From a virus (lineage: Duplodnaviria > Heunggongvirae > Uroviricota > Caudoviricetes): a stretch of 64,000 nucleotides of DNA. The notes under the pieces are model-generated. The model did not search any database. It saw only the letters and a list, made by a program, of their open reading frames with translations, and was not told where the DNA came from. This document shows positions 3,026 through 51,679 of this stretch, piece after piece (positions within the stretch are counted from its first letter, which is position 1; the number at the start of each line of letters is the position of its first letter). Both the position numbers and the translations under genes were made by a program. The stretch is from the IMG/VR virus record IMGVR_UViG_3300028888_000086, one strand, 5' to 3'.

Positions 3026-4885
3026 TTATTTTTTCGATTTTCCTGCTCTAAATTTATTCTTCATTTTTTCTGTATCTTCTCTCAAACTACTACCACCAAC
3101 TCCATAACCTTCTTCATTAACAACCATAAGACCTAATCCTAATAAGTTGTTTAAGAATTTTTGGTTATCCTCTGTCGTAACTGCTTCTCTTGCTTTTTCT
3201 ATAAACGGTCTTGCATTTCTAGATAACAGAGCAGATAAATCCATCTCACTGATCTTTTGTCCTGTTACTCTATATCTACCTTGACCCATTATAGGTTCAT
3301 CTTTCTTTGGATTAATGTCATGGAAAGCATCGTTACCAAATAAGGATGAAGTTACTTTACTTGAATAAGACGGTATATGATGTAGTTCAATAAGAGTCAT
3401 CCATCCACACTGTAATTTCTTATCAACTGGGACAAATTTACCTGTCATATTTTTAACTACCTTTTCATATTCTTCAGCAGTTAAATTGGCTTTTAATTCA
3501 TCCAGGTCAGTTACAGAAGACTCAGGCATTAAAATTTGACTCTGAGATTCTACATTTAATTCAGTCATCCACTCTTCTACTTTACTAGGTGTGAATTCTG
3601 AATAACAACCTACATTAAAATAGTATACTTCTTCAATAGGTTTAGTATCATGAAGCTTTAAGAATTCATCAACACTTAATTTATCATAACGCCCTTGATA
3701 ATATTTGTTTATAAGTGGCATTATTTTATTTCTTCCTGTTTTTGTTTTCTTATATTCTTCAACCATTTCATATAATCTGTACGCTATCAAACCTAATGAT
3801 TCCTCTAATAATACACCAGCAATTTTTCTATTAATGGTACTATAAGGATTCATAACAACCTCTACCCTATATTGTTTTCCAGTATTTTTATCAACCATTA
3901 TAGGCATCAATTCATCTGGCAAAACAGTAGAAATAACACCTTTACCACCATATCTATTAGTTACTTTAGAACCTACCATAAGAGTTGTTACTTTAATTAA
4001 TCTTATTCTTACAGTATAGACAACTTTATAATCATCTCTATCCATAACAATAGGATCTAAGTTATCAGCAGCCACATACTCGGGGAACTTATCAAAAATT
4101 ATAGATCTATCCTTATTTTTGTTATATTCCTCAATTACAGGCTCAGAAGTAGTAGCAAATTTATAATCTACCTTTACTGACTTCGGAATTTTAGGTTTTT
4201 CATTTTTCTGAATTAATACGTCAGATACATAAGCCTCGTCTATATTATTTGGAACCTTATATCTCTCTTCTGTAGTATATTGTGAGAGATCCTTTTTACC
4301 TTCTTCTCCAAATAATCCACCTAATTTTTCATTAAGGGCTTTATTAATTTCATCTAATCGTCTTGCTGCAAAATATGTAACTAATGAATCTCCAGAATGT
4401 ACCTTAGTTCCAACAGGTATAATCCACTTTAAAGCAGAAGAAGTTTTTATATTTAATCTTATATCAATTAAACTATAGTGAGACATCCTTCTAGCATAAG
4501 ATTCAGATACAACTAAAGCATCTTCATTAACAAGACCAAACATAGCGTGGAATAAAACCAATGTATTTAAACCAGACTTATATGTATCTTCATTTAATCC
4601 AACAGCTCCAGTAATGATATCTCCCTTTTTAACAGTTTGACCTACTTTTACTTTAGGCTCTGTGTAAATACTAATATCATTTAAAGATTGAATTGCTGTT
4701 CTTCTATTAATATCAACAGTTTCACCATTATTGAGTTTAACTGTTACTTTATCAGAATCTATACTTACAACTTTTCCTTCATCATACTCAAATTTTTCAT
4801 TAAGTATGTTATTTTTAAGCTCTTCATCGTGTCCTGTGTCAACTAAAGGACGCTGAGCATTAACTAAAGGGATACTTTGTTTCAT
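3026..4885 (-). CDS. rpoB: RNA polymerase beta subunit, C-terminal exon (exon 2)
   Basis: MKQSIPLVNAQRPLVDTG aligns to bacterial NMQRQAVPL..EAPLVGTG. It also has NRYGGKGVIS (RHGNKGV motif), MNPYSTINRKIAG, and GQGRYRVTGQKISEMDLSAL (GGQRFGEMEVWAL). Confidence 0.9.
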   Translation of the reverse strand: MKQSIPLVNAQRPLVDTGHDEELKNNILNEKFEYDEGKVVSIDSDKVTVKLNNGETVDINRRTAIQSLNDISIYTEPKVKVGQTVKKGDIITGAVGLNEDTYKSGLNTLVLFHAMFGLVNEDALVVSESYARRMSHYSLIDIRLNIKTSSALKWIIPVGTKVHSGDSLVTYFAARRLDEINKALNEKLGGLFGEEGKKDLSQYTTEERYKVPNNIDEAYVSDVLIQKNEKPKIPKSVKVDYKFATTSEPVIEEYNKNKDRSIIFDKFPEYVAADNLDPIVMDRDDYKVVYTVRIRLIKVTTLMVGSKVTNRYGGKGVISTVLPDELMPIMVDKNTGKQYRVEVVMNPYSTINRKIAGVLLEESLGLIAYRLYEMVEEYKKTKTGRNKIMPLINKYYQGRYDKLSVDEFLKLHDTKPIEEVYYFNVGCYSEFTPSKVEEWMTELNVESQSQILMPESSVTDLDELKANLTAEEYEKVVKNMTGKFVPVDKKLQCGWMTLIELHHIPSYSSKVTSSLFGNDAFHDINPKKDEPIMGQGRYRVTGQKISEMDLSALLSRNARPFIEKAREAVTTEDNQKFLNNLLGLGLMVVNEEGYGVGGSSLREDTEKMKNKFRAGKSKK

Positions 4886-10736: not shown

Positions 10737-10814
10737 AGCGTTTAATGGACTACATATGGAGATTGGGAATCTAAGTACATAATCACCATCTCCAGGTTCA
10801 TTTAACCTAACTTT
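10737..10814 (-). CDS. rpoC: rpoC mini-exon 2 (78 nt), encoding KVRLNEPGDGDYVLRFPISICSPLNA
   Basis: It encodes exactly the ~26 aa missing between ...RPPTLH (exon 1) and DFDGD (exon 3). It aligns to bacterial [29 protein letters not shown]. It is preceded by G (10815) and ends in U. Confidence 0.7.
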
Positions 10815-11120
10815 CATACAAAACATTGAATATTCCGAAAAATACTTATATTTTCATATAAGACTAGACTATATCATCATCTATATTTCAAGATGGACTG
10901 CGCTTCAAAAATAGGAATTTCACCTATTTCTTACTCCATATAGGATAGTCGTTACACCTTTTTTGATTTATAATTTCAAAACTTGGCTCGGGATTGCCAT
11001 ATTATATTTCTATAACTTAGGTTTCCCCGATAGCAGAGATTTTATTTTCTCCACACCTAGCATTTACTAGTTCACAGTCTTTGCATTATAAGATCGCTCT
11101 TATAAGTCACAAATTTCTTT
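10815..11120 (-). mobile_element. group I intron A of rpoC (family 1, no ORF, ~306 nt)
   Basis: R GGUGUAACGACUAUCC (~10943-10958) and S GAUGAUGAUAUAGUCUAG (~10867-10884) are present. The 5' exon ends CAU (U). The intron ends UGUAUG. Confidence 0.7.
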
Positions 11121-12281
11121 ATGAAGTGTAGGAGGCCTATTAATAATTACTAGTTGTTTTTCTGCAAATTCCTTAAATAATTTTTGAGTTTCAGGATTAA
11201 ATGCTTCTTCTCTAGTAGCTTTCATAGCCTCTTTGTATGTAAAGTTAAGCTCTTTCTGTAGATGTTCAATAAATTTTTCTCTAAGTAATTCATAAGCAAT
11301 AGATACAGGAATACCAATTTCATCAATCTTCAAATCTGTTGCTGGAACAATTGGACATCTTGCAGAGTTTTTTGTTCTTACTCCAAATAATTCACGGGCT
11401 AAATTTTCTTTGGAGGTATTTAATAATTCAGTAGCTTCTTTTTTACCTGTATTCAAAAAAGCTCTAAGTAATGCAGTATATCTAACTTTTTCGCCAGGAG
11501 TTTTAAAGCGGCCAATTACTTCTTCATAATTCAGGTCATTACTTTTTTTATCCTGTACACAACAAAGTCTAATAATAATACTGTACCAAACTGACAATTT
11601 ACTAGACCCTTGAGTTTTCTTACCATTTTTATATTCAAAGGTAACGGGTCTCATCATTGCAGGTAATACTAAATAATATCGATTTATAAGTTTTCTGAAT
11701 TCGTTTGCTCTTTCTGGGAAGTGTTTTTCTATAATAGCTAACAGACCTTCATAAGAACATTTAGATTCATCTGTTATAAATTCAGATATTTTTAGTTCTT
11801 TCTTTGTGGGACTATAAGTAAATTGGCAAGTATCAAAAACCTTTATAGTTAATTTCTTTCCACCACGACCAGCATATCCTAAGTTTTTGAAATCATTACC
11901 TTGGAAATCTAGTTTGATAGTACTTTCAGAAAATATATCATCAAATAATTCTTTAAATATATCAAATCTCAAGTCATTTAAGTAATAAAAAGGTAATTCT
12001 ATTCTTGCAAATCTTCTCATACCTTCCTCTCTTGTAAAAACTCTAGCTCCACAAAAAGGGCAAGGTTCATGAGAGGCTCTTTTAATTTTACCACAAATAC
12101 AACGATCTTCATAGATTGACCCGAAAGCATCAACATCATAAACTCCTCCAGGTATGGGTTCAGGATAGTTGAATTTCAGGTTAAAGTCTCTATGATCAAA
12201 TAAAACTCTATCTCGACCATCACTTCTTGTATAGTCTAATATAGCTTCATCTGTTAATAATTCTAGTGATACTTTTGACAT
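11121..12281 (-). CDS. rpoC: RNA polymerase beta' subunit exon 1 (through ...INRPPTLH)
   Basis: N-terminal Zn finger CICGKIKRASHEPCPFCG, RFARIELPFYY (RMGHIEL), INRPPTLHK (LNRAPTLHR). The annotated tail EICDL* is intron read-through. Confidence 0.9.
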
Positions 12282-13383: not shown

Positions 13384-13544
13384 AATTTTAAATATATTTT
13401 ATATTTTCAAAATTTTTTAAAAAATATTAATTTTTATACTGACATGTTTTAATTTTTTTATGTCAGTCTTCATATATAGGATTTTTAAGGGATTTAAAGC
13501 GTGTTTTTATAATTTCAGAATAAAAAGGAAATTTTAAAACCCCG

Positions 13545-13560
13545 AAATCCTTATATATGA
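13545..13560 (+). promoter_or_regulatory. conserved promoter-like motif (AAATCCTTATATATGA) driving the tRNA cluster
   Basis: It is a family member of the AAAGCCTTATATATGTA motif, and the first tRNA starts 7 nt downstream. Confidence 0.55.
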
Positions 13561-13566
13561 TTTAAT

Positions 13567-13654
13567 GGAGAGGTGCCGAAGTTGGTCATAACGGCCTAGA
13601 CTTGAAATCTTGTGTGTCTTTATAGACCCGTGGGTTCGAATCCCACCCTCTCCG
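13567..13654 (+). tRNA. tRNA-Ser(UGA), class II with long variable arm
   Basis: Acceptor GGAGAGG/CCTCTCC, D-arm GCCG...CGGC, anticodon loop CTTGAAA, T-arm GTGGGTTCGAATCCCAC. Confidence 0.8.
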
Positions 13655-13678
13655 CTTTCAAAATAAAATAACAAAAAT

Positions 13679-14088
13679 GGCGGCATGTTGGAATTGGTAG
13701 ACAAGGCGGTCTTTTTGCCAATTAGACAAACAAAAGAGAGTGCATAGGTAAGAAATTCCTATGTAGAACCTCTCAAATTCGGTGGAAGTCTCTATGAGAA
13801 AATACCGAGCTAAATCAGATTTAATTCTGTAAATGTGTAGAGAGCAGAAGGGAGGTACCTAAGTTGAGAAAAGCATTGAGTATGACGGTAGTGCGGAGGT
13901 GTCAGCCTCAGGATTGGTTCGACTCCAAAATGCTGAGTTGCAACTTTTTCAATATGGTAATGGTGTGCTCCAGACCACAACAACACAATTAGTCGCCAAG
14001 CGTCTGAGAAAGTTGGCTATGGTAACATAGTGTGGTAGGAAAAACCGCTCCCAATTATGGGGTCCCAGTTCGACTCTGGGTGTCGCTA
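13679..14088 (+). tRNA. tRNA-Leu(UAA) interrupted by a 326-nt group I intron between U34 and A35 (exons 13679-13713 and 14040-14088)
   Basis: 5' exon GGCGGCA TG TTG GAATTGGTAGA CAA G GCGGT CUU. 3' exon AAAA ACCGC, long variable arm TCCCAATTATGGGG, T-arm CCCAGTTCGACTCTGGG, acceptor TGTCGCT (two G.U pairs with GGCGGCA). The intron ends ...GUAGG. Confidence 0.75.
13714..14039 (+). mobile_element. group I intron (family 2) in the tRNA-Leu(UAA) anticodon loop
   Basis: Canonical cyanobacterial/plastid trnL insertion site. The 5' exon ends in U and the intron ends in G. It has internal P7-like pairing UUCGACUCC / UUAGUCGCC, and shares AAUACCGAGCUAA with the AAA+ ATPase intron. Confidence 0.65.
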
Positions 14089-14136
14089 CAAAAGAGGTGA
14101 AAAATCCTCTTTTATTTTTCCGTCTATAAATCCTTA

Positions 14137-14154
14137 AAAGCCTTATATATGTAA
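14137..14154 (+). promoter_or_regulatory. promoter-like motif AAAAGCCTTATATATGTA preceding a ~140-nt structured non-coding region
   Basis: Motif family member. It sits immediately after the hairpin AGAGGTGAAAAATCCTCT plus T-run. Confidence 0.5.
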
Positions 14155-14335
14155 TGGAGATCGAGCTAATAGTTAATTCCGATTTTCCGGGGTAAAGACG
14201 CACCCGGCAACAGAAGTGGTCAAATTTATGAAAAGGGAAAGCCTGAGAATGCACCATTACGTTAGACTGTGCAAAAAACTTGGGCTTTCCTAATTTTTTT
14301 TCAAGACTTTTATGTCTTTTTATTTTTTTTCTTGA
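14155..14335 (+). ncRNA. candidate small RNA (promoter to double terminator)
   Basis: No ORF. Stems CCGGGG...CCCGG, GGAAAGCC...GGGCUUUCC plus U8, then AAGACUUUUAUGUCUU plus U-run. Promoter upstream and next gene's promoter downstream. Confidence 0.4.
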
Positions 14336-18616: not shown

Positions 18617-19549
18617 AAAACCGTATCAGCTAAACTTCTCTGTAATGAACTTAATATGCCTGTATTAATTGTTGATAGTGATTTTGAAGGTAGAATCTTA
18701 GAATTTATACAAAATTTAGATTATGAATGTGTAGTTCTTATTGATGAAGCCGAAAAAACATTTAAAGACGAAAGAGATAACAGTGAAGTTTTATTGAAGC
18801 TTATTGACGGAATATATAATAGATCCAGAAAATTATATATTCTCACTACTAATAAATTAACTGTAAATGAAAATTTATTAGGAAGACCAGGTAGAATCAG
18901 ATATATACAAGAATTCAATAATCTTGATCCTAAATTGATATCACTGTATTTAGATGACAATTTAAAGGATAAAGAAAAGAAACAATACGTAACTGAAATT
19001 GTAGATCTTTTAGAAATCTCAACTATCGACATTCTCAAAAATGTTGTAGATGAGGTTAATATGTTTGGTGAAATTCCTGAAGATTCGCCAATGAATATTC
19101 CAAGAGGTAAGTACGTATTTGATATTCTTAAATTGTGGGGTTGTACCGAAGATGATATTCCAGATGTTAAAAAGTTTCTGGATAAACATAAGACTTCTGG
19201 AAAATCGTTATATGAATGGTTATATAATAAAGCAAATGATGAAGATCTTCCAGAAGAATATAAAGATACAGAAGATAACTACTACAATTATGAACTTCTA
19301 AGAAATGAATTTGGATATACCAATAGTTGTACATATTCTACAATAGATAAACTTTCTACAAAGTATAGTACAATGTGGAAAGACTGTGATACCTCTATAG
19401 GTAGAGTATTAACAGAACCAGATGCATTCCATAAAGAAGGTGGAGATTATAATTTTATGCTAATTGAAGGGAGATATGATAAGGAAGTTTATCTTTGCGT
19501 ATTACTAAAACAAAGAAAATCTCCAACATTATATCATGGAGTATATTAA
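18617..19549 (+). CDS. AAA+ ATPase exon 2 (Walker B VVLIDEAE, sensor-1 TTN, Arg finger RPGRIR)
   Basis: Classic AAA second region of homology LLGRPGRIRY. The frame is open upstream of the annotated Met back to 18617. Confidence 0.75.
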   Translation, partial: KTVSAKLLCNELNMPVLIVDSDFEGRILEFIQNLDYECVVLIDEAEKTFKDERDNSEVLLKLIDGIYNRSRKLYILTTNKLTVNENLLGRPGRIRYIQEFNNLDPKLISLYLDDNLKDKEKKQYVTEIVDLLEISTIDILKNVVDEVNMFGEIPEDSPMNIPRGKYVFDILKLWGCTEDDIPDVKKFLDKHKTSGKSLYEWLYNKANDEDLPEEYKDTEDNYYNYELLRNEFGYTNSCTYSTIDKLSTKYSTMWKDCDTSIGRVLTEPDAFHKEGGDYNFMLIEGRYDKEVYLCVLLKQRKSPTLYHGVY

Positions 19550-19609: not shown

Positions 19610-19737
19610 AGAAGGTGTCAAAACCTGGGTATATACCCAACCTTCTCAATAGACCTTAAAACCGTCACGGTAAAATATTCTTACCCATTTTAAAGATTAT
19701 GAAACACTCCACATTTATTTCATATATAAGGCTTTGA
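19610..19737 (-). ncRNA. candidate ~110-nt small RNA on the minus strand (promoter at 19721-19737, terminator hairpin GAGAAGGU...ACCUUCUC plus U9)
   Basis: Orphan minus-oriented promoter motif with no ORF downstream (only a 7-codon MGKNILP). Palindromic loop GGGUAUAUACCC. Confidence 0.4.
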
Positions 19738-22739: not shown

Positions 22740-22816
22740 AATTTTTTTAATTTTAATTGTTAATACTTGAAAATAAAAACAAGTAAATAGGATTTTATTA
22801 CCTATTTACTTCTCTA

Positions 22817-31293: not shown

Positions 31294-31643
31294 ATTATAT
31301 TATATTAAATTTATTTACATTATTTTCACAGACGGGCTGGCCTTGTGCAAGCCCAACCTAATAAATTACTGATTTTTATATTTATTTTATTTCTTTTTTT
31401 CATATATAGGATTTTTAAGGGATAATAAGTGTGTTTTTTACATTTCATGAGAAAATTTTAGGGATGTTACAAAGAATACTATTAAATATGTAAAAATGAG
31501 AAAAAATGTAAAATATCTCATAAATAACACAGGGGTCTATTCAAGAGTAAAAAAGTCTGGAAATTTTTTCTGTAACGAAGTGGAAAGAAAAAATTTGGGC
31601 AACTCCTAGGCTGCCCCTCTGTCTTTAAAAATGGGAAATTTTC

Positions 31644-36618: not shown

Positions 36619-38781
36619 ATGAGTACACAATTAATTTTTGTGATCGTGAGTATAGTAGCATTAGTGTTACTATCGACTGTTGTACTGATCTTAACTCGGT
36701 ACAAAAAATGTAAATCAGACGAACTTCTAATCGTCTATGGTAGAACTTCAAAAAAGAAACTAAGATCTGCCAAGGATGGTGAGAAGGTTGAAATCGATTC
36801 TAGCAACTGTAAGTGCATTCAAGGTGGTGCAAAGTTTATTATCCCAGTAATTCAGGGATATTCGATCCTTAAGATGACACCGAAACAAATTGTATGTAAC
36901 TTAACGAATGCTCTTGACCTTCAAAAGATTGAGACATCGGTTAAGACTGTTATTACTGTTGCTATTTCTAAGACTCCAAGCGTTCAAATTAATGCCGCGA
37001 CTAGATTATTAGGATTAGATGACAAAGAAACTAGTTCGCTCATAAGTGAGATCTGTTTCGGTTCTTTGAGACTAGTGGTTTCTGAGATGTTACTTGAAGA
37101 TCTTGTTAATTCGAGAGATAAGTTTTTGGAACTCTGTAAGACAAGAATTGGATCTGAACTTGAAAAGATTGGTTTTGACTTAATCAATATCAATATTTCA
37201 GAAATTTCCGATAATGCTCACTACCTAGAAAATCTTGGTAAGAGTGCTGAGGCACGTGCTACATTTACTGCAAAGAGTGAGATTGAAAAGCGTACTAAGG
37301 AAGGTGAAATCGCGATAGCCACTCAGAAACAAGAGAAGGAAGTAAAACTCTCTGAAATTTCTCGTGATAAGGAAATTCAAGTTTCTGAAAACAAGAAACA
37401 GCAGGATATTAGAACTGCTGAAATTGAACGTGATAGGGTTACCACAACGGAAACAACTAAGAAGGAACAGGAAGTTTCTCTTAGGGATATCGAACGTGAG
37501 AAAAAAGTTCAAATAGCTGAGAAAGCCAAAGAGGAAACAGTTAAGATTCGTGAAGTTGAAAAGAATCAAACTTTGGAAACAGCCTCACTTGAAAGAGAAG
37601 AGGCTGAAAAGAAGTCTGAAATTGAACGTGATAAGCAAATTACTATTGCAACGAATCAGAGTGAACAAGCCCAGAAAGTGGCTGAACAAGAAAAACTTAA
37701 ACAATCTGAAGTTGCAAAACAATCTGCTGAGGCTCAAACTGCTGTTGCTACCGCTAATGCAGAACGTGATGCTAAGATTGCTGAACAAGAATCAAAATCT
37801 GAGGCGGCCCAAGCTAAATCTCGTCAAGATGCAGCAGCTAGTGTAGTAGAGGCTGAACAAAATGCTGAAGCTAGAAAAGAAACTGCTAAACAAGAGGCTA
37901 TAGCTAAGAAGAAAGAGGCTGAACAAAAATCAGAATCTGCTCAGGCTAAGGCTACTCAAGAGAAAGAAGCTCAAATAGCAGAATATGACTCTAGTCGTCG
38001 TAAGAGAACAGCTGAAGCAGATAAAACTGCTACAATTACGGAAAATACTGCTGGTATTGAAATTGCAAAATCAGATGCTCAGTTAGGTAAGGAACAAGCT
38101 GAGTCTCAGAAAATCATTGGTGAGAGTAAAGCTCAGTCTGAACAGGCTATTGGTATCGCCCAAGCCAGGAAGGATGAGGAAATTGCAGTAGCTCAGGCTA
38201 AGGCAGAAAAAGCCAAGCAGGAAGCAACTATCATGGTTGGTACTGAAATTGAGGCCGACAGAAAGAGAACTGAAGCTAAAGGTAAGAAGGATTCTACTAT
38301 TACTGAAGCTGAAGGTGAAGCCGAAGCAATTAAATTGAAAGCTTTTGCAGAAGCTGAAGCAATTAAGGCTAAAAAACTTGCAGAAGCTCAAGGAGAACTT
38401 GCTCTTGCAGAAGTACAAAAAGTACTTGAAGCAGCTAAATCCGAATCTTTGGCGAATCTTGCAAAAGCTAATGTTGCTGCAGAAGCTCAAATTAGTTGGA
38501 TTCTTAGAGATCAGTATGCTGAGATGATTGAAGCTGATTCAAAGAAATTTGAACATCTTACAACAGGTGATATCAAGATTATTGGTGGTACTGATACTGC
38601 TGGTAAGTTTTTGAAAGACACCGTTCAAGCTGTTCAACAATCTTCAATGCTCAGTGAATTTTTACCAGGTCTTGGAGGAGTTTTAGGAAAATTGGATAAA
38701 TTCGATAAAAAGAATCAAGTCCAATCGAGTGAAAATTCAGAGCAATTAGAAGCTCCAGAAGAACCTGAGTCAAAAGAATAA
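36619..38781 (+). CDS. floT: flotillin-like SPFH-domain protein with long E/A/K/Q-rich coiled coil (FloT/YuaG-like)
   Basis: N-terminal TM helix, SPFH-like region, AEAEAIKAK...AEAQ flotillin-type EA repeats, and conserved C-terminal IIGG.D. GC is ~40% against ~25% in the surroundings. Confidence 0.75.
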   Translation: MSTQLIFVIVSIVALVLLSTVVLILTRYKKCKSDELLIVYGRTSKKKLRSAKDGEKVEIDSSNCKCIQGGAKFIIPVIQGYSILKMTPKQIVCNLTNALDLQKIETSVKTVITVAISKTPSVQINAATRLLGLDDKETSSLISEICFGSLRLVVSEMLLEDLVNSRDKFLELCKTRIGSELEKIGFDLININISEISDNAHYLENLGKSAEARATFTAKSEIEKRTKEGEIAIATQKQEKEVKLSEISRDKEIQVSENKKQQDIRTAEIERDRVTTTETTKKEQEVSLRDIEREKKVQIAEKAKEETVKIREVEKNQTLETASLEREEAEKKSEIERDKQITIATNQSEQAQKVAEQEKLKQSEVAKQSAEAQTAVATANAERDAKIAEQESKSEAAQAKSRQDAAASVVEAEQNAEARKETAKQEAIAKKKEAEQKSESAQAKATQEKEAQIAEYDSSRRKRTAEADKTATITENTAGIEIAKSDAQLGKEQAESQKIIGESKAQSEQAIGIAQARKDEEIAVAQAKAEKAKQEATIMVGTEIEADRKRTEAKGKKDSTITEAEGEAEAIKLKAFAEAEAIKAKKLAEAQGELALAEVQKVLEAAKSESLANLAKANVAAEAQISWILRDQYAEMIEADSKKFEHLTTGDIKIIGGTDTAGKFLKDTVQAVQQSSMLSEFLPGLGGVLGKLDKFDKKNQVQSSENSEQLEAPEEPESKE

Positions 38782-38825
38782 TAAAATTAGAATAGATAAG
38801 AAATAAAATCTTATCTATTCTTTTA

Positions 38826-38846
38826 TTAAGAAAAAAAAGAAAGGCT
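38826..38846 (+). terminator. GC hairpin AAAGGCTCAAAGGCCTTTTTT after floT-like gene
   Basis: Palindromic AGGCCT core plus T-run. Confidence 0.6.
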
Positions 38847-38954
38847 CAAAGGCCTTTTTTAAAATTTGATAACGGTTTCCAGGTTTAACCTGGTTATTTA
38901 TATAATTTGTAGTGTCTTATATCGCTTTTTCTACTATTATGCGGGTAATTATTT

Positions 38955-39143
38955 TTACCAATCTTCGCCGCTAAATAGCGACACAATTACCATCACTGCA
39001 ATAATGGGCCAACAAAGTCCTGTTATACAGCAACGAATGACTCCCTTAAGAGTACTACTTTCGGGATGTACTAATACCCCGACAATCATGGCTATGATAG
39101 CCGATATGATTAAATATAAATAAACAGTCATAAAACAATACAC
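38955..39143 (-). CDS. small hydrophobic membrane protein (62 aa), relatively GC-rich
   Basis: Driven by the minus-oriented promoter at 39233-39252 plus a 5' hairpin. Sequence MTVYLYLIISAIIAMIVGVLV. Preferred over the overlapping plus-strand ORF 38866-39123. Confidence 0.5.
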   Translation of the reverse strand: MYCFMTVYLYLIISAIIAMIVGVLVHPESSTLKGVIRCCITGLCWPIIAVMVIVSLFSGEDW

Positions 39144-39199
39144 TATTTTTTACAGAGGTTGTGGTTCCTCTTTTAGTTAATATTTGATTACGATACAAA

Positions 39200-39900
39200 A
39201 AAAAATAAACAGATATATTAATTTACCTGTTTACATATATAAGGCTTTCAAGGATTATTAAACGGTCGAAAATTTAAAGCCAAAAAAAATCAATTAAAAT
39301 ACTTAAATTTATAATTGAATATCAGGCTTTTATTACTACGACCGAAATTAATAAAACACACTTTATAAACATTAAAAATCTTATAAATAGAAAAAAAGAA
39401 CCCAGCTTTAATGCCGAGAAAGAAATTTAGGTTTTCTTATTATATTAGAAGTTATTGTTTTCTTAATTTAATTTTGACTTCACTTATTATTGATTTATAG
39501 TTATATCGTTTTGTGAATTTAATATAATCTAAATCTTTTATTCTTAGTCTAGGTAATATCATAACAACACCTCCTTTCAAATTTTTACCTAGGGTTCTTT
39601 TACCAGCAATGTTATATTTTGCTGGTTTTTTTTGTTAATAATTTCGAAAATAAAAATAAACAAGTATTTAATTTACCTGTTTACATATATAAGGTTTTGA
39701 AGGATTATTAAACGGTCGACACTTTAAAGCCAAAAATCAATTAAATACTTAGATCTATAATTGAATATTCTCGGCTTTTATTATTACGACCGAAATTAAT
39801 AAAACACACTTTATAAACATTAAAAATCTTATAAATAGAAAAAAAAGAAAGAACCCAAGATTAAACTTAGGAAAGAAAGAATAATTTGCTTTCTTATCTA
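39200..39900. repeat. two tandem ~250-bp repeat copies (~39200-39445 and ~39648-39900; period ~450 bp). Each holds a minus-oriented promoter plus TSS hairpin and a conserved structured element (nested stems CGGTCG...CGACCG / AAAGCC...GGCTTT) with an identical 60-nt block
   Basis: Direct sequence comparison: cgaccgaaattaataaaacacactttataaacattaaaaatcttataaatagaaaaaaa is identical in both copies. Confidence 0.7.
39500..39610 (-). CDS. small ORF (~35 aa, MILPRLRIKDLDYIKFTKRYNYK...) with the only canonical Shine-Dalgarno (GAAAGGAGGTG) seen in the window
   Basis: Downstream of the repeat-copy-2 promoter on the minus strand. The SD sits 7 nt before the ATG. Confidence 0.35.
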
Positions 39901-40202
39901 TCGTAGAATTAAGTCTTTTTACGGAACTTAATTATATTTTCTTTTGTAATGGATTTTTGATTATATTTGGTTCTTAATTTTACATAATCTATATTATCCA
40001 TATTAGTTTTAAGTTTAAATTCTATCAATTTTCTTACACATCCTTTCTAATTTTTGATAGACTTTCTTTTCCTAGGATTTTAATAGTCCTAGGTTTTTCT
40101 TTTTTGTTAATTTGTTTCGAATAGGGAGATATTTCACTCCCTGGGTTTTAAGTTGTTGCGTTTGATATTAATCGATTAATGTCTTCTTCTGTTGATAATA
40201 CT

Positions 40203-41107: not shown

Positions 41108-41306
41108 AATTTATCCTTTCTTTTTTTGTTAATTTAATTCTTGAAAATAAAATAAATGTTATCATAATTTTACCTATAATAACATTTACTACTATGTGTT
41201 CCGACTTCGTTCCGTAAACTTCACTAGTCTTCACATATATAAGGCTTTCAAGAATTATTAAATGGAAAAATAAAAAGAGAGAATTTTATTTTCCCTCTTT
41301 ATTTTT

Positions 41307-45650: not shown

Positions 45651-45894
45651 TGTTAGCCCCTCTATATAGTGATATATAGAGAAAATCCTGAATATGCTGG
45701 AAACTCCTAAAGCTTTATCTACCAAAGTGTGAAAATGATAAAGATATTACAATGGACAATCAGCAGGGATAACTCTGTAAAAAGAGAAGCCCTCAACGAC
45801 TACCAAGGGACATCTAAAATAAAATTAGATGAAGGTATAGTCTAAACCCAAAATAAAATATCTCGAAAGGGAGGGTATCAATTGTATCACACAA
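45651..45894 (+). mobile_element. group I intron 1 of polA (family 1, no ORF; boundaries +/-30 nt)
   Basis: R CCUCAACGACUACC (~45790-45803) and S GAUGAAGGUAUAGUCUAAACCC (~45829-45850) on the plus strand. These are reverse complements of the rpoB/rpoC intron elements. Confidence 0.6.
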
Positions 45895-46529
45895 TAATCT
45901 CAAAATCAGATATAAAAAGTACCATTTGTTCTTATCCAGGACATTTATTAAGTTATTTTGATATAAGTTCAGCGGAGGTAAAGAGTGCTGGATTTATGTC
46001 GAAAGACGAAAACTTAATAAATATGTTTAAAAATAATATTGATGTATATATAGCAACAGCAAAATCGTATCTTCAAGATAGATGGGATACATTAACTAAA
46101 AAAGAGCAAAAAGCATTTAGAAAAACATTTAAAACTGTTACACTTGCACTTATTTACGGGCAGGGCGTTAATGCCCTAGCTAGTAGATTAAACATTACTA
46201 AGCAGGATGCTCAAGCTATTGTAGATCAAGTTTATACTTCTTATCCAAAACTTAGAGAATATATTAAAGAACAACAAGAATATCCATTACATCACAACGG
46301 AAGAGTGCGAACTTTCTTTGGAGATGTTTTGGTTGCAGAAGAATGGAAATATTATTTAAAAGCTACAGATCCATATGAAAAAAAAGCATTAGCCGCTCGA
46401 ATTGGCAGGGCTGGGAGCAACTATCCCATACAAGGTGGCACGAGCCTGGCGATGAGCAGTGGTTTCTTTAACGACCTACGAGTAGCAAAACAAGAAGGTT
46501 GGGATTTAACAAGTTTTATAACGGTCCAT
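45895..46529 (+). CDS. polA: family A DNA polymerase exon 2 (motif A through motif C His)
   Basis: SYFDISSAEVK (DYSQIELR), TLALIYGQGVNALASRL...YTSYPKLREYI (motif B/O-helix region), NYPIQGGTSLAMS, ending ...TVH| at the H of the catalytic VHDE. Confidence 0.8.
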
Positions 46530-46815
46530 AAGTAAAATTGTGGCATACTGAAGTAATTTAGTATGAAAAAGATTGTGAACTCATATATGTGAGGTGTCTA
46601 AGAAAATAAAAAATCTTAGGCTAACGGTAAAAGCTAAGTTAGAAATAATATGCTAATACCGTGCCAAGTCAGAAATGAAAGGTGTAGAGACTATCCTTTA
46701 TGGAGTAGGTTTATAGTGAAATTCTATATTCCGAAGTGCAATCCATCTTGCAATATAGATGATGATATAGTCCAGCTCTAATGGAAACATTAGGAGAAAG
46801 CGGATTCTAATACTT
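46530..46815 (+). mobile_element. group I intron 2 of polA (family 1), inserted inside motif C between His and Asp
   Basis: The 5' exon ends CAU. R GGUGUAGAGACUAUCC (~46678-46693) and S GAUGAUGAUAUAGUCCAGC (~46759-46777) are nearly identical to rpoC intron A. The 3' end is approximate. Confidence 0.6.
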
Positions 46816-50944: not shown

Positions 50945-50962
50945 GAAAGCCTTATATATGTA
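50945..50962 (+). promoter_or_regulatory. promoter motif AAAGCCTTATATATGTA plus TSS hairpin AAACAGG...CTTGTTT plus downstream module TTTATTTTCAAAATATTAACAAT
   Basis: The same composite occurs at 52002-52078, 22745-22833(-), 41130-41252(-), 39180-39252(-). Confidence 0.55.
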
Positions 50963-51416: not shown

Positions 51417-51600
51417 GAAAGCCTTATATATGTACAATAAGTACAAAAAATTCAGTTGGTGACGCCTGGAACTCACTGCAAATAAAAACGAGAGAAGGAA
51501 AATAGGGCATTTTATAAGAGTTGAGATAGATATTCTCAACTCTTTTTTTCGGTCGTATATTTAGAATTTAATTTTCGCTTATATATTATTTCTTTTAAGC
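51417..51600 (+). ncRNA. candidate small RNA unit: promoter (51417-51434), ~110 nt without a credible ORF, terminator GAGTTGAGATAGATATTCTCAACTC plus T7, then a second long hairpin TTCGGTCG...CGACCG plus T6
   Basis: Only a 10-codon ORF starts inside the promoter motif. Two consecutive terminator structures follow. Confidence 0.35.
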
Positions 51601-51679
51601 GTTATTTTAATTCTTATATTTCGACCGTTTTTTATTCTTCAAAGCCTTATATATGTATTAACAATTTAAATTATTAACT

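Follow-up and report, generated by a model that had tools for sequence, protein, structure and literature searches.

A tandem pair of predicted mini-gene cassettes with hairpin-promoter control regions in an uncultivated jumbo phage

The window (the whole 64,000-nucleotide stretch of phage DNA that was analysed) contains near 39 kb a tandem repeat that a sequence-only reading had described as non-coding. We found that this repeat consists of two tiny phage gene cassettes, each with a promoter, a structured leader, a gene for a basic protein of 36-39 residues and a terminator. The locus is likely to comprise two small transcription units in tandem, each complete in itself, with a composite hairpin-promoter control region, carried by a jumbo phage that has its own RNA polymerase. 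Elaborate as it is, this is essentially ordinary jumbo-phage gene-regulation architecture. The earlier suggestion of a regulatory locus agrees with what is conserved between the copies: a terminator and what looks like the remnant of a divergent promoter, then a long hairpin, the phage promoter and a hairpin in the 5' leader.

Phage and genome setting

The window has a GC content of 27.5% and five tRNA genes, and encodes a split RNA polymerase, with a beta fragment (PF00562) at 3026-4885 and a beta' fragment (PF00623) at 11100-12281. The beta-like protein matched those of AR9, PBS1 and the S6/Staphylococcus jumbo phages by tblastn, with only 23-30% identity to the AR9-group polymerases. The source is an uncultivated jumbo phage encoding its own multisubunit RNA polymerase, and the mini-genes lie in a variable gene region. 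Contigs from three independent samples carry the locus with 100% identity. GenBank phages showed no DNA similarity to the locus. Exact-pattern searches of IMG/VR with the 47-mer block or the hairpin-promoter junction gave no match, nor did IMG/VR protein-pattern searches with the flanking SPFH and 205-aa proteins or the small-protein family. A single metagenome scan returned only contig L125, which we rejected as a related phage with a conserved tandem pair; it is the continuation of the window's own genome.

Geometry of the repeat

The two copies form a direct repeat of ~450 bp, as had been reported, in which 39197-39286 aligns with 39647-39736 at 84% identity and 39325-39397 matches 39773-39845 at 72 of 73 positions. 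The identical block, previously given as 60 nt, is borne out by a longest exact run of 61 nt (39337-39397 and 39785-39845). The description as non-coding does not hold, as the whole unit of ~450-466 bp aligns at 74% over 471 nt with a small ORF in each copy. Likewise, the two copies are real, but the repeat reaches ~40130 and does not end at 39900 as had been thought. On the minus strand the units run from ~40130 to 39690 (unit A) and from 39690 to 39240 (unit B). We found no iteron families besides these two units. A 29-codon ORF on the plus strand was rejected, being present in unit 1 only with no counterpart in unit 2.

Read along the minus strand, each unit would begin with promoter P, continue through a leader with two hairpins (hp1 and hp2) into the gene for the 36-39-residue basic protein, and end at an intrinsic terminator, t1. 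The inter-unit control region of ~230 bp would then be composed of t1, a block of ~46 bp, a GC-clamped hairpin of ~80 nt, the next promoter P and its hp1.

The small ORFs form a family under purifying selection

ORF A (39909-40028, minus strand) has 39 codons and a TTG start, reads (M)IEFKLKTNMDNIDYVKLRTKYNQKSITKENIIKFRKKT, and has GAAAGGATGTG upstream. ORF B (39452-39562, minus strand; MILPRLRIKDLDYIKFTKRYNYKSIISEVKIKLRKQ) has 36 codons and aligns in frame with A, to which it is 41-44% identical (E = 3e-4). The genome contains two further paralogues, C and D, at a distance of 34 kb, on L125 where it continues the window. At 72% identity, A is nearer to C than to its neighbor B (44%). The comparison of A with C gave a pS of 0.79, a pN of 0.14 and a pN/pS of 0.18, and the ratio ranged from 0.18 to 0.62 across all comparisons of the four paralogues, all of which come from one genome. 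Such ratios at near-saturated synonymous sites indicate that ORFs A-D are protein-coding, and the saturation itself indicates that the duplications are old. Thirteen columns are invariant in the four-protein alignment. Sequence comparison thus shows a mini-gene family under purifying selection.

All four proteins are hydrophilic (GRAVY -0.5 to -1.0) and very basic, with a pI of about 10. None matched Pfam at E≤1, and a search of 5.8 billion proteins with a concatenated query, used because each ORF is shorter than 40 aa, found no homologue. A ribbon-helix-helix fold was suspected from the sequence pattern and rejected, being supported neither by Pfam nor by the AlphaFold2 model, a weak prediction of a single low-confidence helix (pLDDT 74) from a 2-sequence alignment.

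The Shine-Dalgarno (SD)-led ORF of the earlier reading is ORF B. The SD-like sequence GAAAGGAGGTG (39568-39578, minus strand) places GGAGG 7 nt before its ATG, and this 11-mer is unique in the window. Among the 74 ORFs of at least 70 aa, 69 were without an SD-like 4-mer or longer at -22 to -4, versus 14% at random positions; the genome avoids SD sequences. Paralogues C and D are without the SD of ORF B.

Promoter P is a genome-wide motif

A minus-strand promoter shared by the copies had been proposed, and a promoter-like motif followed by a hairpin is indeed seen in both. The shared sequence is cTTnAAAGCCTTATATATG, with CCGTCT or AAAACACRCTT as upstream element and the layout CCGT-N16-AAAGCCTTATATATG. 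The unit B promoter at 39683-39712 (minus strand) reads (CGA)CCGTTTAATAATCCTTCAAAACCTTATATATGT, and its -31 CCGT overlaps the 3' arm of the long hairpin. The copy 1 promoter, a motif match at 39233-39262 (minus strand), is the predicted driver of a gene for a 58-aa hydrophobic protein downstream (38955-39131, minus strand). In the window, ACATATATAAGG occurs 19 times with at most one mismatch, compared with 0.9 expected, and CCTTATATATG has 28 matches at the same threshold. Of these 28, 27 are intergenic and 24 have the start of a same-strand gene or tRNA 8-250 nt downstream. The P motif recurs at more than 100 loci on IMG/VR contigs of 200-400 kb from uncultivated jumbo phages. Sigma-70-like promoter matches were not above those in shuffled sequence. 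The AT-rich extended consensus of P overlaps the early-promoter consensus of AR9, and its TATG matches the late motif of phiKZ (PMC5312081). We infer that P is read by a phage RNA polymerase. Elsewhere in the window, the promoters at 14141 and 51422 begin predicted transcripts that have terminators and no ORF.

Leader hairpins and terminators

In unit B, hp1 lies at the predicted 5' end of the transcript (39648-39683, minus strand), where TAAACAGGTA..TACTTGTTTA folds as a hairpin ahead of a U-rich stretch. This hairpin recurs after the promoters at 50950 and 52007. After the copy 1 promoter the sequence contains TAAACAG..CTGTTTA and then a U-run (39197-39233, minus strand). Since hp1 lies at the 5' end and precedes a U-run, it resembles a promoter-proximal attenuator. 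It might instead stabilize the 5' end. A 42-nt leader is identical before unrelated ORFs.

The second hairpin has its T-run on the other strand. In unit A, CCTAGGA...TCCTAGG is followed by a T-run (40071-40103, plus strand), a terminator-like site in both scan and fold; in unit B, CCAGCAA..TTGCTGG is followed by T8 (39603-39633, plus strand), from sequence and fold. On the mRNA strand of unit A an A-run precedes the hairpin, which makes hp2 a predicted terminator of opposite-strand, antisense transcription. The four hp2 sequences differ and have one architecture in all four cassettes.

Terminator t1 was detected by the terminator scan in 4 of 4 cassettes. Scan and fold place it in unit A at 39843-39871 (CCUAAG..CUUGGG and a U-run, minus strand) and in unit B at 39391-39418 (CUCGGC..GCUGGG and U7, minus strand). 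The unit B copy contains G.U pairs and so would pair only as minus-strand RNA.

The identical block resembles a second promoter

Most of the 61-nt identical run 39337-39397 is occupied by copy 1 of the block, which we call P' (39345-39390, plus strand). Copy 2, GAAATTAATAAAACACACTT..TTAAAAATCTTATAAATAG (39793-39838, plus strand), resembles promoters of the AAAACACRCTT subclass and has a deviant core. Promoters of that subclass, GAAAT..AAAACACRCTT..TTAAAAATC(C)TATATATG, precede real genes at 13507 (minus), 31437 (minus) and 22865 (plus). At 22.8 and 13.5 kb pairs of promoters stand back to back, and it is to the second of each pair that the block aligns. The P' core is off the strict consensus at both loci, in different ways (TTATAAATAG and CCTTAAAAAAG). 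One departure from the consensus can be enough to inactivate an early promoter in AR9 (PMC5312081). The block appears from its sequence to be the mutated relic of a divergent promoter. Identical tracts measure 61 nt and 103 nt within pairs versus 23-34 nt between pairs, and the perfect identity of the block looks like the product of gene conversion, yet ORF A is nearer to C than to its neighbor B.

A second interpretation of the block, to which we give somewhat less than an even chance, is that it is a working plus-strand promoter of another strength or temporal class. The antisense RNA of ~225-260 nt that would start there and end at hp2 would cover the terminator, the mini-gene and the ribosome-binding region, and would silence the early mRNA or destabilize it through duplex cleavage, in the manner of P22 sar and lambda OOP. 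Such a sense/antisense switch is compatible with the model of paired transcription units, but the block would then serve mainly to produce the antisense RNA. In its favor, the block belongs to a promoter subclass that precedes real genes, and copy 1 even has the initially transcribed GAAAAAAAGAA in common with the promoter at 31437. In 4 of 4 cassettes a plus-strand hairpin and U-run stand just before the point at which the transcript would reach promoter P, and because the four hp2 sequences differ, the structure has been maintained. Other long leaders, among them those at 41233 and 52284, lack such a plus-strand feature on a reading of their sequence, and within each pair no segment is better conserved than the block. 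However, the TATATATG core has been altered at both loci, and differently. Gene conversion explains the identity within pairs equally well, since the identical tract of the second pair also covers the 3' UTR and terminator. The encoded proteins are also unlike type I toxins, which are small hydrophobic membrane-active peptides; A-D are hydrophilic and basic.

The long clamped hairpin

Throughout the 64 kb, CGGTCG and CGACCG are confined to three pairs 66-70 nt apart, at 39263-39344, 39713-39792 and 51550-51627; shuffled sequences give none. All three window copies fold as long interrupted hairpins (z = -4.2 to -6.5). Copy 2 (39713-39792, minus strand) is of the type that we call alpha, with stems CGGTCG/CGACCG, AAAGCC/GGCTTT and TCAATTA/TAATTGA. 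Copy 1 (39263-39344, minus strand), recognized by its clamp pair and its fold, is also alpha. The third hairpin, gamma (51550-51655, plus strand), has a different interior and lies directly after a terminator T-run and directly before a promoter P. The nested-stem element of the earlier reading thus exists as far as its CGGTCG...CGACCG hairpins are concerned, but its interior is not one fixed sequence: there are three types, which have only the outer clamp in common. The strain variant L004 has a beta-type apex in copy 1 in place of the alpha one, and with it a compensatory change. All 19 stem pairs are kept, with 98.9% of cells paired and compensatory change in two pairs, a covariation that comes from two lineages and amounts to two events. 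The apex varies freely while the stems stay, and the gamma copy on L125 accommodates an apical loop that is far larger (136 nt versus 78 nt). In 7 of 7 copies compared the clamp is invariant. Modules of the same kind recur at 51.5 kb and again at about 73.7-74.9 kb.

Several properties bear on what the hairpin might do. After the 6-bp GC clamp comes UUUUUUAUU in gamma but only UUUAAUAAU in alpha and beta, the closing stem of which is parted from the next stem by internal loops of 7-8 nt; alpha and beta are poor as terminators. The sense-strand fold was the stabler in only 4 of 7 copies, and a G.U bias on the sense strand, promising as a sign of an RNA hairpin with three copies, failed with seven. 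An Rfam scan of 38800-40200 yielded only chance-level matches well below gathering thresholds. We also examined the GTGGGTTATTTT...AAAATAACCCAC repeats of relatives, which are long hairpins upstream of promoters, and rejected them as unrelated; they adjoin an IS607-like recombinase with a TnpB-like gene. The hairpin adjoins the -31 CCGT of promoter P on its upstream side, and in alignment with the promoter pairs at 22.8 and 13.5 kb it looks inserted, with ATTTC on one side and CC(G/A)TTTAATAAT on the other.

This last alignment bears on a further possibility, which we consider rather unlikely, that the hairpin acts as DNA or is selfish, either as a MITE-like palindrome targeting or travelling with P or as a cruciform or protein-recognized structure that would modulate P by sequestering or presenting its -31 CCGT. 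Measured against the homologous regions of divergent promoters at 22.8 and 13.5 kb, the insertion is clean and ~78 nt long. The hairpin has 6-bp inverted termini and six genomic copies, and its alignment to paralogous promoter regions is insertion-like; a MITE or REP-like element would also be expected to have target-site duplications, and empty sites in relatives. Upstream of the hairpin lies either the block or, immediately adjacent, the T-run of a terminator, and it always abuts CCGT. Its clamp is invariant, a 34-nt GTGTTTTATTAATTTCGGTCGTARTAATAAAAGC, unpaired positions included, is common to the four cassette modules, and its folding energy has no consistent strand asymmetry. Against this, neither a target-site duplication nor an orthologous empty site was found and no transposase was seen nearby, while the central loops of 13-16 nt and the internal loops disfavor cruciform extrusion. 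The virion RNA polymerase of phage N4 needs a DNA hairpin, but the hairpin described here sits upstream of -31 and not at the N4-like -17 to -9, and most P promoters function without one.

It would be more surprising still, and we think it improbable, if the clamped ~80-nt hairpin fused to the -31 element were a new structure-dependent cis element for jumbo-phage RNA polymerases, whether a switch sensed through supercoiling or protein or a promoter-seeking palindrome, that together with the convergent antisense units made a timing switch for the 36-39-residue protein family. Within such a reading, one protein of the family carries the sole strong SD of an otherwise SD-free genome.

Very little probability attaches to the idea that the functional unit is the gene of a structured, non-coding RNA or an element akin to a riboswitch, with the small ORFs as bystanders. 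The folds of the hairpin are significant and the genome does have promoter-driven, ORF-less predicted transcripts with terminators (14141 and 51422), but the hairpin would be transcribed by read-through only, since both flanking promoters point away from it. No Rfam family was found even at E≤1 beyond chance-level matches, and the ORFs are clearly under purifying selection. An origin of replication and a foreign cassette of recent arrival, both raised by the sequence-only reading, can be dismissed almost entirely: AT-rich repeats with palindromes give a superficial resemblance only, there are no iteron arrays, and GC skew follows the strand of the genes and does not switch at 39 kb. Hairpins of this family lie at three or more further places (among them the modules at 51.5 kb and about 73.7-74.9 kb). 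Composition and promoter usage are native, as are the promoter and hairpin modules repeated across the genome; the paralogues are old, and the locus is identical in three samples.

A model of the cassettes and their history

In the model of two paired transcription units, the hairpin and promoter together would form a composite terminator/insulator-promoter module, which would stop or process read-through from upstream and restart transcription. Being repeated, the modules might double as substrates of the recombination that duplicated the cassette, and gene conversion through the same recombination would keep the control regions identical as the genes diverge. The mutated divergent promoter and hp2 probably still define an antisense transcript of ~240 nt over each mini-gene.

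If this is correct, the locus offers a candidate promoter and a candidate transcription-unit grammar (promoter, 5' hairpin, gene, terminator, next promoter) for uncultivated jumbo phages, in the genomes of which the P motif could aid annotation of early genes and small proteins. The mini-genes are a phage-specific protein family mostly missed by gene callers. Current understanding is not overturned, and the hairpin and the possible antisense units provide testable regulatory hypotheses.

Comparison with known systems

Antisense regulators are known from phages, among them sar of P22 and OOP of lambda, as are RNase III processing and retroregulation sites such as the early R sites of T7 and sib of lambda. 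The locus resembles sar and OOP in having a convergent promoter-like element with a dedicated predicted terminator over a small early gene, and the R sites and sib in having, past the terminator, a long imperfect hairpin that only read-through RNA could form. In contrast to all of these, it has no sequence similarity to them and its antisense promoter core is degenerate.

The virion-RNAP early promoters of AR9 and phiKZ-like phages (Lavysh et al. 2017, PMC5312081) also combine an extended, conserved AT-rich consensus with a position before many small genes of unknown function, and those phages likewise have their beta and beta' homologues split. The TATATAT core of P overlaps the AR9 motif AAATATATATTAT-N6-G, and its TATG resembles the late motif of phiKZ, the G of which is +1 (PMC5312081). 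The sequence found here (cTTnAAAGCCTTATATATG with upstream CCGTCT) is nevertheless distinct. In jumbo phage 201phi2-1, termination sites lie immediately downstream of start sites and sRNAs derive from 5' UTRs (PMC11512511); hp1 and its U-run have a similar place right after the predicted P start, in the window and in L125, as predicted from sequence.

The closest known concept is the PeSL (promoter-early stem-loop) of T4-type phages, a composite terminator/promoter cassette (Arbiol et al. 2010, PMC2839356; Comeau et al. 2014, PMC4122927). As in PeSLs, a conserved intergenic stem-loop stands just upstream of a promoter, an early one in PeSLs and P here, and the module is repeated between small ORFan genes of a variable region; the modules flank the four ORFan mini-genes and unrelated neighbors. 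The canonical modules of this phage consist of a short GC hairpin, TTTTATTTTT, CCGTCT and the promoter, of which the cassette modules are a long-hairpin variant. Unlike that of PeSLs, the promoter is not sigma-70-like and follows a 19-nt phage-specific consensus of a jumbo-phage clade with its own RNA polymerase, the stem-loop is ~80 nt long with an invariant 6-bp clamp that overlaps -31 and is additional to an ordinary terminator, and most genes do not use an SD. Indels between close relatives define PeSLs; the one strain variant compared here (L004) has an apex swap and not a cassette indel. PeSL repeats have been proposed as recombination substrates that duplicate, delete or swap the intervening ORF (PMC2839356, PMC4122927). 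The cassettes would thus represent a PeSL-like modular architecture outside T4-type phages, with concerted evolution of the control regions, in a phage that encodes its own RNA polymerase.

Two repeat units, each with a small gene

Self-comparison of the window bore out a tandem repeat of two copies spaced 448-450 bp apart. A repeat search found direct copies at 39197-39286 and 39647-39736 (84% identity) and at 39325-39397 and 39773-39845 (72 of 73 positions identical), and the longest exact run in this pair was 61 nt. When the units were aligned (40130->39610 against 39610->39160), homology extended over the entire unit, and BLAST between them gave 74% over 471 nt. The sequence-only reading had called the repeat non-coding, which was wrong, since both units contain a small ORF, placed alike and in the same frame. 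ORF B (39452-39562, minus strand) encodes 36 aa from an ATG, and the Shine-Dalgarno (SD) sequence GAAAGGAGGTG described upstream of it is indeed there, as an 11-mer unique in the window; ORF A, on the minus strand of unit A, encodes 39 aa from a TTG that aligns to the ATG of B.

The A and B proteins share 41-44% identity (E = 3e-4), and the same genome has another tandem pair of paralogues, C and D, at a distance of 34 kb. All four proteins are basic (pI ~10) and follow the consensus MIxFxLK..(I/L)DY(I/V)....(K/R)YN(Q/Y)KS(I/V)..E..(I/V)K(F/L)RK(K/Q), with 13 invariant columns. Between A and C, pS is 0.79 and pN 0.14, and all pairwise pN/pS values lie between 0.18 and 0.62; synonymous sites are thus near saturation and replacement sites are not, so A-D are real genes. 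Domain and protein searches found no homologues or domains for them, and a structure model of the small protein was uninformative.

An SD-like match of four or more nucleotides at -22 to -4 was absent from 69 of the 74 ORFs of at least 70 aa; the five matches compare with 14% of random positions, so that such sequences are rarer before genes. The SD of ORF B is a true outlier in the window. None precedes C or D; the SD is therefore particular to B (A has a weaker version) rather than shared by the family. Several related IMG/VR contigs that share the promoter of this phage do have GAAAGGA(G) ahead of the ATG, which suggests that SD usage differs between hosts across this phage clade.

A putative phage promoter class

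The promoter shared by the units (P) reads cTTnAAAGCCTTATATATG on the strand of the downstream gene, with CCGTCT usually ~21 nt upstream of the core. Both cores at the locus (39244->39234 and 39694->39684) point leftwards, in agreement with the minus-strand orientation first proposed. Allowing at most one mismatch, ACATATATAAGG was observed 19 times in the window against 0.9 expected, and CCTTATATATG gave 28 matches, 27 of them intergenic and 24 followed at 8-250 nt by the start of a gene or tRNA on the same strand. The P motif also occurs in more than 100 loci of 200-400-kb IMG/VR contigs. Early promoters of phage AR9 are AAATATATATTAT-N6-G, and late promoters of phiKZ are TATG with the G as +1 (PMC5312081). 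The window (27.5% GC, five tRNA genes) encodes split RNA polymerase beta/beta' fragments (PF00562 at 3026-4885, PF00623 at 11100-12281), whose best database relatives, at 23-30% identity, are from AR9, PBS1 and Staphylococcus jumbo phages. Given the likeness of P to these AR9 and phiKZ promoters and the presence of the polymerase genes, the natural reading of P would be a phage-polymerase promoter; we infer both the polymerase and the start site.

Several further observations concern this promoter class. At 13549-13655, a tRNA-Ser has its start 8 nt beyond the G of a promoter core (CCTTATATATGATTTAAT|GGAGAGG), so its primary transcript could begin at or very near the mature 5' end. Two consensus promoters are followed by ORF-less stretches of ~110-160 nt (14141-14310 and 51422-51549) with strong terminators at their ends, making these candidate phage ncRNAs; the former has a weak alpha_tmRNA-like match (26.6 bits, E = 9.7e-6, below gathering). 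Another consensus promoter (19721-19731, minus strand) faces antisense into the 3' end of an AAA-ATPase gene (18656-19549), and no ORF follows it on the minus strand. TTAACAA (TATTAACAA), the second most enriched 7-mer within 70 nt before gene starts (9 observed, 1.2 expected), clusters 20-26 nt before the ATG, for example at 22763, 36597, 40459, 41132, 51658, 52060 and 52394; it could mark another promoter class, as the late promoters of AR9 read AACA-N6-TA/G, or act as a translation signal in an SD-less genome.

The long clamped hairpin

The nested stems noticed at the outset are real. CGGTCG and CGACCG form only three pairs in the window, 66-70 nt apart (39263-39344, 39713-39792 and 51550-51627), against zero in shuffles, and each folds as a long interrupted hairpin (z = -4.2 to -6.5). 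In alignment A6, against promoter regions at 22.8 and 13.5 kb, the hairpin stands out as ~78 nt inserted between ATTTC and CC(G/A)TTTAATAAT. It lies immediately upstream of the -31 CCGT of P, which forms part of the 3' clamp.

Of the seven known copies, six are genomic and one is a variant of copy 1 in L004, a contig of a slightly differing strain; the window's own sequence is present at 100% identity in one ENA, one Logan and one JGI contig. The hairpin copies fall into three interior types, alpha, beta and gamma, with only TTTCGGTCGT...TTTCGACCGTTT common to all. The alpha and beta types keep 19 of 19 pairs (98.9% of cells paired), with compensatory changes at two of them (C-G to U-A and U-A to A-U). 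In L004 a beta-type apex replaces the apical ~35 nt of copy 1, and the rest of the 670-nt region is almost identical. Compared with the gamma copy of the window, the apical loop is much larger (136 nt against 78 nt) in the one at 10797-10932 (genome ~74.8 kb) of L125, a JGI contig that directly continues the window (position x being genome position 63972+x). The extra sequence of the latter resembles a promoter core plus type II leader start, GCTTATATGTGAAGA..ACGGAACGAA (compare window 41244->41190), and CGCTTATATAT is at the apex of the window's gamma copy too.

If the clamps were two phased protein sites, their distance would matter; it varies (66, 68, 70 and, in the large gamma copy, ~124 nt), which favours base pairing. 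The sense fold is stabler than the antisense in only four of the seven copies, so that folding makes no choice between an RNA and a single-stranded DNA hairpin.

The control region and possible antisense units

The conserved ~230 bp comprise, in minus-strand order, a predicted terminator (t1), the identical block, the long hairpin, P and a 5'-proximal leader hairpin (hp1). A terminator scan found t1 after each small ORF (four of four cassettes, minus strand), with varying stems whose G.U pairs are functional on the minus strand only. Hp1 is followed by a U-run and also occurs after promoters 50950 and 52007, other sequences taking its role elsewhere; it resembles the termination sites just downstream of starts in jumbo phage 201phi2-1 (PMC11512511). 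A 42-nt leader with the hairpin GAGGAACCACAACCTC + TGTAAAAAATAGTGTATTGTTTTATG is 100% identical at window 39129-39170 and L125 9132-9173. The ORFs it heads are unrelated, one encoding a 58-aa membrane protein and the other a 117-aa protein, and the leader is a further modular junction.

On the plus strand the identical block reads GAAATTAATAAAACACACTT..TTAAAAATCTTATAAATAG. The layout GAAAT..AAAACACRCTT..TTAAAAATC(C)TATATATG also stands before real genes at 13507(-), 31437(-) and 22865(+), and alignment A6 revealed homology between the control region and the two regions, at 22.8 and 13.5 kb, where promoters stand back to back. Layout and homology together suggest that the block is a divergent promoter (P') with a mutated core, TTATAAATAG at this locus and CCTTAAAAAAG in the second pair.

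Upstream of every mini-gene (four of four), the mRNA strand carries an A-run and then a second leader hairpin, hp2 (CCAGCAA/TTGCTGG, CCTAGGA/TCCTAGG, CCATAG/CTATGG and CCTACAA/TTGTAGG). Read on the plus strand, all four are a hairpin followed by a U-run, a predicted intrinsic terminator. A plus-strand transcript from P' would be 225-260 nt long, covering the gene and its start region and ending just before the sense promoter. The presence of hp2 in all four cassettes and its absence, as judged by inspecting the sequence, from other long leaders (41233, 52284) make antisense transcription plausible, but the P' core is degenerate, and we would put such transcription somewhat short of an even chance.

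Identical tracts within the tandem pairs

Pair 1 has an exact tract of 61 nt; that of pair 2 is 103 nt long and extends over the 3' UTR and terminator as well. Runs shared between the pairs reach no more than 23-34 nt. ORF A is nearer to C (72%) than to the adjacent B (44%). Sharp-edged identical tracts, differing in position and lying beside old genes, point to gene conversion between the tandem repeats. All four modules retain a 34-nt stretch, GTGTTTTATTAATTTCGGTCGTARTAATAAAAGC, and selection on promoter-like and hairpin sequences probably adds to the block identity.

Other features of the genome

The window also contains an abortive-infection-type AIPR protein gene (PF10592, 49179-50885), a short family-A DNA polymerase fragment (45882-46535) that may belong to a split gene, and a 720-aa SPFH/Band-7 protein (36619-38781) with a long repetitive Ala/Glu/Lys-rich tail. 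At 13679-14095, a tRNA-like gene uncalled by ARAGORN, with a 3'-half tRNA match at 14021-14088, is apparently interrupted by a ~330-nt insert with a sub-threshold Rfam group I intron match (13703-14032, 32.5 bits, E = 2.7e-6). Related jumbo-phage contigs L046 (4436-5190), L020, L038, L047, L049, L098, L104, L109 and L116 encode an IS607-like serine recombinase and a 457-aa TnpB-like ORF, adjoining an inverted repeat, GTGGGTTATTTT...AAAATAACCCAC, that is conserved and lies directly before a consensus promoter.

Comparison with known systems

Tests for a known RNA family and for a type I toxin-antitoxin system gave no support. The sequence-only reading had offered a regulatory locus, an origin or a recently acquired cassette; a replication origin and a foreign cassette likewise failed to find support, and the first holds, the locus being a regulatory cassette, a variant of a known phage type. 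Its main value lies in the annotation of uncultivated jumbo phages, with the hairpin and antisense ideas as hypotheses. The closest concept is the T4-type PeSL, a composite stem-loop/early-promoter cassette that recurs between small ORFans and is implicated in recombinational shuffling (PMC4122927). The locus shares the architecture of PeSLs, departs from them with respect to a sigma-70 promoter and SD, and offers thin evidence of their strain-level indels. On this comparison it would best be named a PeSL-like module, from a jumbo phage that has a promoter class of its own, and the long clamped hairpin is best called a variant stem-loop of that module.
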